Source of the DNA: Alphaproteobacteria bacterium
Lineage (GTDB): Bacteria > Pseudomonadota > Alphaproteobacteria > UBA828
DNA: 64,000 nt
Direction: 5' to 3'
NCBI GenBank assembly: GCA_965214705.1
Contig: CBDCCI010000002.1
Span: forward strand, 1,856,001 to 1,920,000
A program made the position numbers and the translations under genes. Within the stretch, counting starts at the first letter, position 1. Every line of letters begins with the position of its first letter. Positions 14,338 through 19,530 of this stretch are shown here, in pieces. A model generated the notes under the pieces. The model was not told the origin of the DNA and ran no database searches. It worked only from the letters and a program-made list of their open reading frames with translations.

Positions 14338-16044
14338 GTGCCTGACAGCAACCGCTACGAGCGCGGACTCGAACGGGGATCCGCCAACCACGTCCCACTG
14401 ACCCCGTGCGACTTCATGGCGCGGGCGGCCGCCATCTATCCCGCGCGGGCGGCGGTGGTGCGCGGCGCGCTCAGGCGAAGCTACGCGGAGACCTACGCTC
14501 GCTGCTGCCGACTGGCCGGTGCACTCGCGGCGCGCGGAGTCGGCATCGGCGACACGGTCTCGATCCTGGCGCCCAACGTGCCGGCCATGCTGGAGGCCCA
14601 TTTCGGCGTGCCGATGGCGGGCGCCGTGCTCAATGCCCTCAACATCCGCCTGGATGCGGCTTCCATCGCCGCGATGCTGGAACACGCGCGCTCTCGCGTG
14701 CTCATCGCCGATGCGACTTTTGCGAGCGTGGTGGAGGAGGCGCTGGCGCAGGTGGACCGCCGCCCGCACGTGGTGGCGATCGACGACTCTGCGGAAGGCG
14801 AAGGGAAGGGGAGGGGTTTCGCCGACGAGAGCTACGAGGAACTGCTTGCCTCCGGGGCGCCCGAATTCGCGTGGCCTTGGCCCGAGGACGAGTGGCAGGC
14901 GATCTCGCTCAACTACACGTCGGGCACGACCGGGCGGCCCAAGGGGGTCGTCTATCACCACCGGGGTGCGTATCTGAACGCGCTCAGCAACGTGCTCATG
15001 AACGGGTTCACCCGGGATTCGGTCTACCTTTGGACCCTCCCCATGTTCCATTGCAACGGCTGGACCCACACCTGGGCCGTGACCGCCGCCGCCGGCGCGC
15101 ACATCTGCCTGCCCCGGATCGAGCCGGCGGAAGTCTTCCGCCTGATCGCCGAAGAGAGGGTGACCCACATGGCCGGAGCGCCGGTCGTGCTCGGTATGCT
15201 GATCAACGCACCTGAGAGCGACAAGCGCCGCTTCGATCATGTGGTGGAGGTGGCGACCGGGGGCGCGGCGCCGCCGGCACCGGTCATCGCAGCCATGGAG
15301 GAGATGGGCTTCAACGTCACCCATCTCTATGGTTTGACTGAGGTTTATGGGCCGGCGCTGGTAGCAGCACCGCAGGAGGACTGGCCGGACCTGCCGCTCG
15401 ACGACCGCGCGGCGCTGATGGCACGCCAGGGTGTGCGGCACCACGCGATTCAGGGCGCGATGGTGGCGGACCCGGAGACCCTCGCGCCGGTGCCGGCGGA
15501 CGGTGCCACGGTGGGCGAGATCATGCTGCGCGGGAACACGGTGATGAAGGGCTACCTCGACGATGCCGGCGCCACTGCGGAGGCCTTCGACGGCGGCTGG
15601 TTCCATACCGGCGACCTCGCGGTGACCCACCCGGACGGCTACATCCAGATCACCGATCGGGCCAAGGACATCATCATCTCCGGCGGCGAGAACATTTCGA
15701 GCATCGAAGTCGAGAACGCGCTCTACAGCCACGAGGCCGTACTCGAAGCGGCAGTAGTGGCACGACCCGACGAAAGGTGGGGCGAGACGCCCTGCGCCTT
15801 CGTCGCGCTGAAGCCCGATGCGCACGCGGTCTCGGAGGAGGCGCTGATCGACCATTGCAGGGCGCGAATGGCGCGCTTCAAGGTGCCGCGCACGATCGTC
15901 TTCGGCGATCTGCCGAAGACAGCGACGGGCAAAATCATGAAATTCGAGCTGCGTGAGCGCGCCCGCGCGCTGCCCACCGACACCGCGGAGGGAGGGAGGG
16001 AGGGAGTGAAGAAGCAGGGTGACGGCCGTTTCTCTGCCTCTTAG
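14338..16044 (+). CDS. AMP-binding acyl-CoA synthetase (DmdB-like)
   Basis: YTSGTTGRPKG, LPMFHCNGW, YGLTE, GWFHTGD and LPKTATGK motifs. Confidence 0.9.
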   Translation: MPDSNRYERGLERGSANHVPLTPCDFMARAAAIYPARAAVVRGALRRSYAETYARCCRLAGALAARGVGIGDTVSILAPNVPAMLEAHFGVPMAGAVLNALNIRLDAASIAAMLEHARSRVLIADATFASVVEEALAQVDRRPHVVAIDDSAEGEGKGRGFADESYEELLASGAPEFAWPWPEDEWQAISLNYTSGTTGRPKGVVYHHRGAYLNALSNVLMNGFTRDSVYLWTLPMFHCNGWTHTWAVTAAAGAHICLPRIEPAEVFRLIAEERVTHMAGAPVVLGMLINAPESDKRRFDHVVEVATGGAAPPAPVIAAMEEMGFNVTHLYGLTEVYGPALVAAPQEDWPDLPLDDRAALMARQGVRHHAIQGAMVADPETLAPVPADGATVGEIMLRGNTVMKGYLDDAGATAEAFDGGWFHTGDLAVTHPDGYIQITDRAKDIIISGGENISSIEVENALYSHEAVLEAAVVARPDERWGETPCAFVALKPDAHAVSEEALIDHCRARMARFKVPRTIVFGDLPKTATGKIMKFELRERARALPTDTAEGGREGVKKQGDGRFSAS

Positions 16045-16760
16045 CGCCTCGATTTATGACTTCAATATCAGCATATTATACCACTTTCCTAGAACATTTT
16101 CTTAGTTTGCCCGATGCCCGAAATTCGGCCCGCCCGATGTCGCCACGCCGGATGAGTTTCGAGTTGGTCGTTAGCTAGGCATCTATTCAGCCGACGCGGC
16201 GAGAGGCTCCGGTCCCATGCCCTCACGGGTGGCGGCATCGGCGAACTCGTCCAACACCGCGCCAAGCGTCGCCATCATCTCCTCGATCTGCGCATGCGTG
16301 ATGATGAAGGGCGGGGCGACGATGACCGAATCGCCGATCGGGCGCGTGATGAGCCCGCGGGCGTAGGCCATCTCCACGATGCGCTCGCCGATGGCGTGCT
16401 CCGGCGCGAAGGGGCGCTTGCTGCCCTTGTCCGCGACGATCTCCAGGGCGCCGAGGAGCCCCACATGCCGCACCTCGCCCACCAGCGGGTGGTCCTCGAA
16501 GCGGCGCATCGCCGCCTCGAGCGAGGGCGCCACCTCGCGCACGTTGTCGAGCAGGCCGCCGGGCTCGGTGATCAGCGCTATGGTTTCCAGCGCGACCGCC
16601 GCTGCGGCCGGGCTGCCGCCGGTGGTGAAGCCATGGGGAAACTCCTCATATTCTTCCGCCGCGCGATGCAGGCGACGGTCCATCTCCGGCGACAGCAACA
16701 CCGCCGCCATCGGGTAGTAGCCGGAGGTGAGCGCCTTGGAAGCCACCACCACTGCGGCGC

Positions 16761-17035
16761 AGCGGCTCAGTCGCTGAAGTAACTGGGGGTAGAGTCTTCG
16801 ACTGGGGTTGAGTCTTCGACGGTTGAAGCGTGAAGTGGTAGCGGGTAGGGCAGACGAGGCCGTCCCTTCAGTGGCGTGCGAGGGCACCCGTTTGGAAGCG
16901 GCTCAGTCGCTGAAGTAACTGGGGGTAGAGTCTTCGACTGGGGTTGAGTCTTCGACGGTTGAAGCGTGAAGTGGTAGCGGGTAGGGCAGACGAGGCCGTC
17001 CCTTCAGTGGCGTGCGAGGGCACCCGTTTGGAAGC
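16761..17035 (+). repeat. Exact 136-bp tandem duplication in the IS110 left end
   Basis: 16761-16896 equals 16897-17032, with AGC microhomology; each copy also holds an internal 19/18-bp near-repeat ACTGGGG..GAGTCTTCG. Confidence 0.95.
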
Positions 17036-17140
17036 TTGGCCCGAACCGTGATCGGCTTCTGTCACTGATGGCGCGGGTTCGCCCGTGACCTCGTTCAAGA
17101 GATTGAGACTTCGCCGCGGTTCCTCCCCACCCGCAACGTC
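16897..17140 (+). ncRNA. Putative IS110 bridge RNA (boundaries approximate)
   Basis: TTGGAAG 17028-17034 equals left target+core; GTCACT 17061-17066 is the reverse complement of core+right target; TCAAGAG 17095-17101 equals left donor+core; stems 16977-16986/17125-17134 and 16990-16995/17089-17094. Confidence 0.7.
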
Positions 17141-17163
17141 AACGGAGTTTGGGAGGGCTCTCG

Positions 17164-18588
17164 ATGGCGCGCAAGCGGAGAAGGAGGCAGCGCCTCAAGG
17201 TAGTGCACCCGAATTGCGCCGGGATCGACATCGGCAAGGACCGGCACTTCGTGGCGGTGGATCCGGAGCGAGCCGAGGAACCGGTGAGGGAGTTCGGCGC
17301 GTTCACGCGCGACCTGGATGCGATGGCCGAGTGGCTGAAGTCGTGCGGTGTGACGAAGGTGGCGATGGAGTCGACCTCGGTCTACTGGATCCCGGTTTAC
17401 GAGGTCCTGGATCGAGCCGGCTTCGAGGTGATGCTTGTGCCGCCCCGGATGACGAAGCAGATCGGCGGGCGCAAGAGCGATGTGCTGGACTGCCAGTGGA
17501 TCTGGCAGCTGATGTCCTACGGCCTTCTGCGCGGCGCCTTCCGGCCGGGCGACGCGATCTGCCCGTTGCGCTCCTTCATGCGCCAGGCGAAGCAGTTGAT
17601 CGAGGACCGCTCTCGCTGCGTGCTGCATATGCAGAAGGCGCTGACCCAGATGAACGTGCGTCTGGACTCGGTGATCAGCGATATCATGGGGAAGACGGGT
17701 GAGCGCATCCTGCGGGCGATCATCGCCGGCGAGCGCGACCCCGGGCGGCTGGCGTCGCTTCGCGACAGGCGGATCAAGGCCAGCGCCGACACGATTGCCG
17801 CGAGCCTGGAGGGCACTTGGCGCGAGGAGCACCTGTTCGCGCTTGAGCAGGCGATGCAGCGCTACGACTTTCTGGAGCAGCAGATCGCGGACTGCGAGGC
17901 GCGGATCATGGCGGAGGTTGAGCACCTGACCCCGCCGGACGATCCGACGGATGAGGGTACGCCCGAGGACACTCCCAGTGTCGGATCATCGGGCACGGCG
18001 TCGAACGAGACCCCAAGCAGCAGCGGCAGGGCGCTCCGCGGGCAGGATAAGGCCATGGCTATGGCGCTGCATAAGATGATGGGGGTCGATCTCACCGCAA
18101 TCCCCACCGTCGGCGTCAACACTGCCCTGGTGATCGCCGCCGAGATCGGTCCTGACTTCTCCGCCTTTCCCTCCGCACAGCACTTCAGTTCCTGGCTGGG
18201 GCTGGCGCCTGGGACCAGGATCAGCGGCGGCAAACCGTTGCCGGGCCGGGGGCCCAAGGTGGTCAACCGCGTTGGCCAGGCACTGCGCATGGCGGCCATG
18301 ACCGCTCGCACCAGCCAAACCTTCATCGGCGCCAAGCACCGCAGCCGCCTCGCCCGGATGGACACCAGCGTAGCCGTTGTCGCCACCGCCCGAGAACTCG
18401 CCTGCCTGATCTACCTGATGGTGACCCGCGGCCAGCAATATGCCGAGAAGGGGATGGAGGTCTACGAGAGCCGACGCCTGGACCGAAAGTTCTCTTCGCT
18501 CCGTCGACAGGCCAAGAAGCTCGGCTTCCAACTGGTCGAGATCGACGACGACAACAAAAACACAAATGCCTCTATGTCAACGGCTTAG
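17164..18588 (+). CDS. IS110 family recombinase/transposase
   Basis: GIDIGK, MESTSVYW and KSDVLD (DEDD); C-terminal IPTVG...WLGLAPGTRISGG with the catalytic Ser. Confidence 0.95.
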   Translation: MARKRRRRQRLKVVHPNCAGIDIGKDRHFVAVDPERAEEPVREFGAFTRDLDAMAEWLKSCGVTKVAMESTSVYWIPVYEVLDRAGFEVMLVPPRMTKQIGGRKSDVLDCQWIWQLMSYGLLRGAFRPGDAICPLRSFMRQAKQLIEDRSRCVLHMQKALTQMNVRLDSVISDIMGKTGERILRAIIAGERDPGRLASLRDRRIKASADTIAASLEGTWREEHLFALEQAMQRYDFLEQQIADCEARIMAEVEHLTPPDDPTDEGTPEDTPSVGSSGTASNETPSSSGRALRGQDKAMAMALHKMMGVDLTAIPTVGVNTALVIAAEIGPDFSAFPSAQHFSSWLGLAPGTRISGGKPLPGRGPKVVNRVGQALRMAAMTARTSQTFIGAKHRSRLARMDTSVAVVATARELACLIYLMVTRGQQYAEKGMEVYESRRLDRKFSSLRRQAKKLGFQLVEIDDDNKNTNASMSTA

Positions 18589-19530
18589 AGAGAAGTTACT
18601 CAAGAGTGACCAGGATGTCCGGCGTGAATTCGTAGGTCTCGGCGCCCCACAGGTTCCCGGTGCGGCCGAGCCCGGTGACCACCTCGTCGGCCACCAGCGG
18701 GATGCCGTGGCGATTGAGCACCGCCTGGATCTTTGGGAAGTAGCCGGCCGGCGGCGGCACCGCGCCGCCGGCGCCCATCACGGGCTCAGCGAAGAAGCCG
18801 GCGAAGGTCTCGGGCCCCTCGGCCTCGATCAGCGCCTCCAGTTCGCCCGCCAGGCGCGCGGAGTAGGCGTCCTCGCTCTCGCCGGGATGGGCGTTGCGCC
18901 AGTAGTGCGGCGCCTCGACGTAGCGCACCTCCGGCAGCGGAAGCCCGAAGGCGCCGATGTAGGGCTTGCCGTTGAGGCTGCACGAGGCGACGGTCGTGCC
19001 GTGATAGGCCATGGAGCGGGAGATCAGCTTGCGTCGCTCGGGCTCGCCGGCGCCTCTCGCCATCATCCAAAGCATCTTGATCGTGGTGTCGTTGGCCTCC
19101 GAGCCCGAGTTGACGAAGTAGACCCGCGCCACCTCCATCGGCGCGATCTCCACCAGCCTCTCGGCGAGCACGACCGGGGGCAGGGCGGTGCGGCCGAAGA
19201 AAGTGTGATAGGCCGGCATCTGCTTGAGGGCCTCATGGGCCGCCTGCACCAGCCTGGGCTCGCTGAAGCCGACCACCACGTTCCACAGGCCCGAAACGCT
19301 TTCGAGATAGCGCTTGCCATGCGTGTCGCGGACGTAGATACCTTCGCCCCGCTCCAGCACAAGCGGGCCATCCCGCTCCAGGCTGGGGAGATGGGTGTAG
19401 GAATGAAGATGATGCGCGAGATCGCGCGCCTCGGGGGAGTTCAGCGCCATCGCTCGGGACCTCGGATCGTTCCGTGGGTGGAGGCAGGCCCCGCCGACCG
19501 CCGTGTTCGACCGCGAGCAGCGGAGCCACC

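Follow-up and report, generated by a model that had tools for sequence, protein, structure and literature searches.

Segments matching target and donor in the left end of an AG-core IS110-family element from an alphaproteobacterium

The interrupted aminotransferase gene and the AG core

The window analysed here is a stretch of 64,000 nucleotides from an Alphaproteobacteria bacterium (assembly GCA_965214705.1, contig CBDCCI010000002.1, positions 1,856,001 to 1,920,000 of the forward strand), in which a class-III aminotransferase gene on the minus strand is split by an intact IS110-family element at 16743-18604. The insertion point, TTGGA-AG-TGACC, lies just ahead of the codon for the pyridoxal phosphate (PLP) lysine of the aminotransferase, whose two halves were delimited by a Pfam search. 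We propose, with a probability of about 0.85, that this is an intact AG-core element whose left non-coding end encodes, on the + strand, a two-domain bridge RNA with a target guide and a donor guide of 7 nt each. The features of the locus are as follows.

16183-16742, - strand: C-terminal aminotransferase part, from S-K(PLP)-ALTSGYYPM (PF00202 profile positions 254-402)
16736-16742, + strand: left target half and core, TTGGA-AG; native aminotransferase DNA, minus-strand codons for S and the PLP lysine
16743-18604, + strand: body of the IS110-family element, 1862 bp here and 1726 bp in the other nine copies (136-bp duplication here)
17164-18588, + strand: recombinase gene, 474 amino acids from a conserved ATG; DEDD RuvC-like domain, long linker, Tnp domain with Ser
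18595-18604, + strand: right end, with subterminal GTTAC (18595-18599) and the left donor TCAAG (18600-18604)
18605-18606, + strand: the AG core again, at the right junction; AG stands at both junctions in 10/10 copies
18607-19450, - strand: N-terminal aminotransferase part (PF00202 profile positions 10-256)

The recombinase matches PF01548 (E 4.5e-23) and PF02371 (E 3.2e-12) in Pfam and scores 280 bits against the NCBIfam model NF033542, 'IS110 family RNA-guided transposase' (cut-off 140). Chain 8wt6_A of the IS621 structure is a further match (E 6.5e-10), in which the GID motif and the I-S-G-G Ser line up. Judged by these profiles the element is a member of the IS110 family and of its RNA-guided kind, as an earlier reading of the sequence alone (the sequence-only reading) had claimed. 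The family trait of a core dinucleotide common to both junctions and the empty site, with neither terminal inverted repeats nor target duplication, was found as well. In canonical copies the non-coding ends measure 285 bp on the left and only 18 bp on the right.

In orthologues of the aminotransferase from the same genus, 9/9 read TPDILVTSKALTSGYYPM (PDILVTSK at the junction), and the closest of them (L093, 99% amino-acid identity) has, on the + strand, an empty site that is exactly CCTTGGAAG followed by TGACC. The empty site carries a single AG, and the reading frame requires that one AG be removed. Because the orthologues read PDILVTSK and L093 has TTGGA-AG-TGACC, the AG-core reconstruction of the sequence-only reading, in which excision restores TTGGA-AG-TGAC and PDILVTSK, is right. 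The alternative junction ILVASK, which would come from an ACCA crossover, is excluded by the empty sites of the orthologues and by the right flanks of the nine other copies, which lack ACCA.

The genome (7.9 Mb in 3 contigs) holds ten full copies of 100% identity and three diverged fragments, and the element also appears near-identical as a 1729-nt public contig (X1), which may come from the source organism itself. All ten copies start with CCACCACC and finish with GTTACTCAAG, with AG on either side. The left flank is TTGGAAG in nine copies and TTAGAAG in the tenth (L008), and the right flanks share nothing (tgac in the window, then ttag, tagc, agta, aacg, ccca, atac, cggg, gggc and ccgg). The segments proposed in the sequence-only reading match the insertion sites on the left side (9/10 copies) and fail on the right. 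The 11-bp target it had proposed does not stand either, because the ten sites share TTGGA plus AG only, so that the effective target is 7 bp. This plain 7-mer lies in genes and in intergenic DNA, and the target choice of the element would rest on these 7 bp only. TTGGAAG occurs 342 times in the genome, with 9 occurrences at left junctions, 11 in internal copies and 322 free. A preference for C or G directly 5' of TTGGAAG (10/10 sites vs 62% of free sites) was considered and set aside as too weak, given the many positions examined. A one-base change in L010 (G000:C1:852330-854039), which turns the Shine-Dalgarno sequence GGGAGG into GGGGGG (at the position equal to 17153 of the window), is the sole difference among the ten copies.

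Two slots that vary with the flanking DNA

Relatives of the element were collected in a scan of one genome per species, which gave 78 loci with relatives at 54-94% amino-acid identity. The identical element is absent from the 21 genomes of the genus that were searched; relatives occur in 11 of these, the nearest at 91%, and the loci of this search are mostly the same as those of the scan. The guide dataset covers 81 loci with 93 guide-bearing records; 85 of these records extend far enough upstream for the target side, and 74 are assessable for the donor guide. The two segments at issue are the following.

17028-17034, + strand: left target guide UUGGA-AG, equal to the top strand of the left target and core; a hypervariable slot ending in AG
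17095-17101, + strand: left donor guide UCAAG-AG, equal to the right end and core

In the relatives, the slot at 17028-17034 (between cacccgN and NNtgg) is hypervariable within a conserved context and ends in AG without exception; the guides end in AG in 34/34 aligned relatives. With the left boundary set by flank divergence among copies in multi-copy families and by the match at the expected distance in single copies, this slot matches the left flank of its own element in 70/85 records (65 at 7/7 and 5 at 6/7), covering 18 distinct guides. All 65 exact matches have the 7-mer abutting the left terminus directly, and three of the five 6/7 matches differ by G-T or U-G wobbles. As for the remaining records, the element lies head-to-tail behind another copy in 12/85, and no match is seen in 3/85 (L034, the second record in L043, and L071 at 5/7). 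The donor side is cleaner still: the slot at 17095-17101, which follows GACCTCGT, agrees with the final seven letters at the right end of its own element at 7/7 in 70/74 records and at 6/7 in 4/74, three of these four differing by G-T wobbles. Six variants of it were found (TCAAGAG, TCGAGAG, TCGGGAG, ATGAGAG, ATAAGAG and ATGAAAG).

Because the slots match the element's own left flank (70/85) and its own right end (74/74 at 6/7 or better), both left guides are real. Their naming follows a published rule, by which left guides carry top-strand sequence (PMC11208160), so that 17028-17034 is taken as the left target guide and 17095-17101 as the left donor guide. On this point the sequence-only reading holds up well: the internal TTGGAAG repeats the flank at 16736-16742, TCAAGAG repeats the right end at 18600-18606, CGT precedes both 7-mers (at 17025-27 and 17092-94), and across homologous insertions the two slots covary with the DNA.

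Two decayed relatives lie in the same genome; one (L011, G000:C3:1733818-1734679) has the guide TGTTAAG and the left flank TGTTAAG, and the other (L012, G000:C2:567088-567453) has a different guide, AGAGGAG. Several relatives sit within the guide-coding DNA of a sister copy (L018 at about 1226, L043 at 1047-1194, and L058 and L032/L047 near 1327-1340). The junctions of these self-insertions are either a left one, in which cacccga plus the guide abuts the element, or a right one, in which the right end and AG are followed by cctggtccgaacc, and the right flank is unrelated. Because relatives have inserted at such places, the left half and the core appear to be sufficient as target. Some targets also have conserved letters outside the 7-mer, namely tgt before TGTTAAG in the L037 family and (g)gttc before TCTGGAG in L024, L025, L028, L029 and L061, the latter across different phyla. 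These letters are not accounted for by any contiguous guide, and the targets in question may be repeat families.

Predicted fold and the target's right side

RNAalifold applied to an alignment of 34 distinct RNAs gave 36 pairs. In this predicted fold 98.2% of the cells pair (89.8% in shuffles), and the covariation is 0.321, against 0.169 in shuffled alignments and 0.03-0.07 with slid partners. Its parts are listed here.

16981-17130, + strand: predicted bridge RNA core; outer stem O pairs 16981-16986 with 17125-17130
16994-17041, + strand: target-binding domain; stem A pairs GGCC 16994-16997 with GGCC 17038-17041
16998-17004, + strand: 5' arm of the target loop, G+UCCCUU, then an invariant CA (G+N6 in relatives)
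17008-17026, + strand: hairpin H1 (UGG.GUG ... CAC.CCG), directly 5' of the target guide; 100% paired, mostly invariant
17043-17122, + strand: donor-binding domain; stem B pairs GAACCGU 17043-17049 with GCGGUUC 17116-17122
17061-17066, + strand: GTCACT, a conserved structural segment, not a programmable guide; its UCA may pair with UGA 17104-17106 (weak stem C)
17066-17093, + strand: hairpin D, directly 5' of the donor guide; 11 pairs, 6 of them changed on both sides

Stem A covaries (five sequences have GACC/GGTC and two have GATC/GATC), stem B shows changes on both sides in 5/7 pairs (up to 15 sequences per pair), the H1 helix is longer in some relatives through paired insertions, and stem C is weak, with 3 bp. 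The frequent or invariant G-U pairs assign the RNA to the + strand. In the predicted fold an internal hairpin and a G-U linker precede each guide, which lies on the 3' arm of its domain. The prediction supports a bridge RNA of two sequential domains inside an outer stem, with the guide 3' of the internal hairpin in each. A nested architecture, as imagined from the sequence alone, is borne out insofar as the outer stem encloses both domains, whereas the domains themselves are sequential; likewise, a covarying fold does exist in the left end at 16981-17130, and the loop geometry first drawn for it is unsupported. At the 3' end of the RNA domain, UCCUCCCC (17121-17128) is complementary to the ribosome-binding site GGGAGG of the recombinase gene (17150-17155). 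Such pairing could mask recombinase translation, as reported for the 5' untranslated region of ISPpu9, although covariation favours pairing with 16981-86.

That loop was of the IS621 type, with UUGGAAG as left target guide (LTG) on the 5' side, a CCGA/UCGG hairpin, and GUCACU as right target guide (RTG) on the 3' side, closed by a CCGU/AUGG stem; together these would read the 11-bp target TTGGA-AG-TGAC. GTCACT is indeed present at 17061-17066, and in the window copy it is the exact reverse complement of AG plus TGAC, a 4-nt extension that would arise by chance at a given place about once in 256. However, this segment is kept as GTCACTGATGG in alphaproteobacterial relatives (16/34 aligned, besides this element) regardless of their right flanks, the right flanks of the nine other identical copies are unrelated, and among 50 distinct sites only 3 start with TG and the window site alone has TGAC. 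The proposed helices have 74.5% paired cells and a covariation of 0.043, at the level of the shuffled value of 0.037 (114/500 shuffles equal or higher, 34 RNAs), and they clash with the covarying stems A, B and D. These results make the IS621-like loop with GTCACT as right target guide very improbable.

It is the 5' arm of the target loop that shows a relation to the right flank. In relatives, this arm complements the opening 2-4 nt of the right flank, counted from the first base past the core: the contiguous match averages 0.96 over 50 distinct sites vs 0.46 when permuted (P about 5e-5), and 1.20 vs 0.48 (P about 5e-5) when each of 28 guide sets is counted once. Five sites match at least 3 nt, shifts of one or two bases drop the match to background, and two additional in-register 4-nt matches were found, CGCG in L116 and CACG in L120. 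These results suggest that the arm may serve as a weak second target guide in relatives, and not at the ten sites of this element.

The ends of the element show further regularities. Reverse-complemented, GTTAC (18595-18599) gives the GTAAC that stands some 37 nt into the left end (16779-16783 and 16915-16919), and such pairs of subterminal 5-mers covary across relatives in four types (GTTAC/GTAAC, GTTTG/CAAAC, GTTCC/GGAAC and GTTTC/GAAAC). The 5-mer falls in the aligned region in 31/35, and the other four carry CAAAC before an insertion of about 85 nt. By their letters these 5-mers are an asymmetrically placed subterminal inverted repeat. Head-to-tail tandems joined by a single AG make up 12 records (L040-L057 in OZ253557.1, G004:C1:2231596-2240229 and others), including series of up to five hits spaced by about 1707 bp. 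In these tandems a junction of the donor type has become fixed in the chromosome; it can thus occur as DNA, which is not proof of a circle, and the circle-junction 16-mer has 0 occurrences in the assembly.

Known systems and the reading of the guides

An AG core is not new, since ISPpu9 of Pseudomonas putida KT2440 (Nucleic Acids Res 2025) is described as recombining at AG (PMC12288879), and the element belongs to an AG-core clade that probably includes ISPpu9. Its Pseudomonas relatives (54-58% amino-acid identity) insert in an ISPpu9-like manner into REP-like (repetitive extragenic palindromic) sequences, between GTGGCGAGGGAG and CTTGCTCCCGC, and some of them have a GCCC-N4-GGGC palindrome near the left end, as in PMC12288879. 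These loci may be ISPpu9 itself; the text of PMC12288879 gives neither end nor target sequences. Unlike ISPpu9, the present element has a plain 7-mer as target, with no REP sequence or bacterial interspersed mosaic element (BIME), and its ten sites share TTGGAAG only. We found no literature that maps guides for AG-core elements, and the supplementary data of Durrant 2024 may already list the guides of this clade. Four Pseudomonas members (L074, L075, L087 and L089) have the left-end insertion of about 85 nt, with a GC-rich, terminator-like hairpin between A and T runs. Its position recalls the small-RNA genes of ISPpu9.

In the IS1111 group, the RNA (the seekRNA of Siddiquee's work of 2024) reportedly lies downstream of the recombinase gene. 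The element resembles that group in its recombinase family, its subterminal inverted repeats and its short RNA segments matching target and ends, and differs from it in that the RNA lies upstream of the recombinase gene, the right non-coding end being only 18 bp. With ISPpu10 (bioRxiv 10.64898/2026.03.19.712850), whose guides have been dissected experimentally, it shares membership of the IS110 group and a bridge RNA placed in the left end. ISPpu10 is described there as having a CT core and a right target guide that is stringent, and as requiring a target stem-loop, whereas the right flank is free here.

The closest comparison is with IS621 and ISCro4 (Durrant 2024, Hiraizumi 2024; PDB 8WT6). 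Common to all are a recombinase of DEDD RuvC-like and Tnp(Ser) domains, a left-end RNA with target and donor loops, guides that include the core dinucleotide, a G-U linker ahead of each guide, and 3'-arm guides that end in AG. In contrast, the protein similarity is remote (E 6.5e-10), the core is AG and not CT in gene orientation, the guides have 5+2 nt vs 7+2, the right flank is weakly read or unread with no right donor guide (RDG) found, and the outer stem here encloses both domains. In IS621, the LTG (A50-U58) lies 5' of the stem-loop and the RTG (G77-G80) 3' of it, where it pairs with C11-C8 and hence ends in AG; the right guides as a class pair with the CT core and so end in AG (PMC11208158). 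In the present element, the guides for the left target and the left donor are located on the 3' arm, after H1 and D, and not on the 5' arm as described for IS621.

Because each guide occupies the 3' arm and has AG as its last two letters, as in the RTG and RDG of IS621, the system may follow the IS621 logic on the opposite strand: the enzyme would see a CT core antisense to its own gene, and the guides established here would correspond in position to RTG and RDG. That the 5' arm in relatives is complementary, in register, to their right flank fits such an IS621-like assignment of arms. Seen from the opposite strand, strong guides would occupy the right-guide positions, the 5' arm of the target-binding loop would be weak and that of the donor-binding loop absent.

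The course of events we propose for the element is as follows. Insertion at TTGGA-AG-TGACC would have split the aminotransferase gene before the PLP-lysine codon; UUGGA-AG (17028-17034), being the top strand of the left target and core, would pair with the bottom strand, and UCAAG-AG (17095-17101) would pair likewise at the right end of the element; the DEDD/Ser recombinase would then exchange strands at the shared AG. The RNA would be made from the left end and bound by the recombinase.

Several points weigh against this reading. An Rfam scan of 16000-19500 matched no family, giving only a sub-threshold msiK match inside the recombinase gene, and a scan for a sigma-70-type promoter, the one promoter type scanned, found none in the left end or in the natural right-end/left-end tandem junction of a relative. 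Contigs from RNA libraries (X17, X18 and X20) comprise the left end and 5' recombinase region of relatives at 90-95% with other guides (e.g. CCTAGAG); they cover related elements only and do not prove transcription. At the element's own ten right flanks the 5' arm matches at chance level (0.4 contiguous, 1.3 of 4). A right donor guide was not found when all left-end columns were compared with the first 6-7 nt of the element by mutual information and windowed complementarity, with no column or window complementary to the variable first 5 nt and a best score of 4.57 of 7 at the conserved GGCT beside the element end; the sequence-only reading had come up empty here as well. Since mutations just inside the left end of ISPpu9 are reported to derail circle formation (PMC12288879), something presumably reads the left-end side. 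A handshake-type test, comparing the two letters after the target guide with the first two letters of the element, was not significant (P 0.06-0.47). The opposite-strand reading would be firmer with an alignment to the IS621 RNA than with what it now builds on, namely published IS621 residue numbers and a predicted fold. Finally, the 136-bp duplication may impair the window copy's own RNA.

The internal 7-mers might instead act at the level of DNA or protein, as repeated binding sites, or be target sequence copied into the element, and the subterminal 5-mers GTTAC/GTAAC, which covary too, could act on DNA. At the mismatched sites L008, L052 and L079, however, the internal copy is unchanged and the flank differs, which argues that the 7-mer was not copied from the target. 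In addition, 3/5 mismatches are wobble-compatible, the 7-mers sit within a fold that has compensatory changes and strand-specific G-U pairs, and the IS110 family is experimentally RNA-guided (PMC11208160, PMC11208158). We thus give hardly any credence to recognition without RNA and retain the bridge RNA with two 7-nt guides as the explanation for the family.

The duplication itself is found in the window copy (L001) alone and is absent from the nine other copies.

16761-17032, + strand: exact tandem duplication, 2 x 136 bp (16761-16896 = 16897-17032, 100% identity)

It corresponds to element positions 19-154 and takes in the 5' strand of stem O and that of stem A, hairpin H1 and five guide letters. 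Its junction, GTTTGGA-AG-CGGCTCAG, falls at the core of the internal guide, with the AG at element positions 19-20 as partner and AGC as flanking microhomology. A duplication made by the recombinase was considered, and a simple guided event is unsupported, as the second breakpoint (GGCGC-AG-CGGCT) agrees by eye with the donor guide at 0/5 and the target guide at 1/5. The duplication could have arisen by slippage at the AGC microhomology or by a nested insertion with a later deletion. Because what is duplicated amounts to a second partial target domain lacking the 3' closing strand, this one copy might be crippled, its RNA misfolding and the copy depending on RNA from the nine intact ones, which would be compatible with the bridge-RNA explanation for the family. 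We regard this as rather unlikely: both the complete domain downstream and the recombinase gene are intact, with 100% identity to those of the other copies, extended IS621 transcripts are described as still working in vitro (PMC13626964), and the duplication could be an assembly error.

If the opposite-strand view is extended, the element may represent a natural 'half-site' bridge clade, in which both guides are homologous to the right guides of IS621 and pair with the CT-bearing strand, the cassette being inverted relative to the recombination sites, the target 5' arm vestigial and the donor 5' arm lost. We hold this tentatively, at somewhat less than even odds. If it is true, seven bp would suffice for target and donor alike, which would explain the hundreds of possible sites, the self-insertion into guide-coding DNA and the tandem arrays in relatives. 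The element is an ordinary member of its family, yet it offers a clean natural data set, in which ten identical copies and about 30 distinct relatives make two guides readable against target and donor. It would present a natural IS110 clade that works with a 5+2-nt guide on one side only, and so bears on questions in the engineering of bridge recombinases, namely how much pairing is needed (half-matches and off-target recombination) and whether the loop arms are interchangeable. For the annotation of the family, an apparent 'AG core' may be a CT core seen from the other strand, and guide-coding DNA may itself be a hot spot of insertion.

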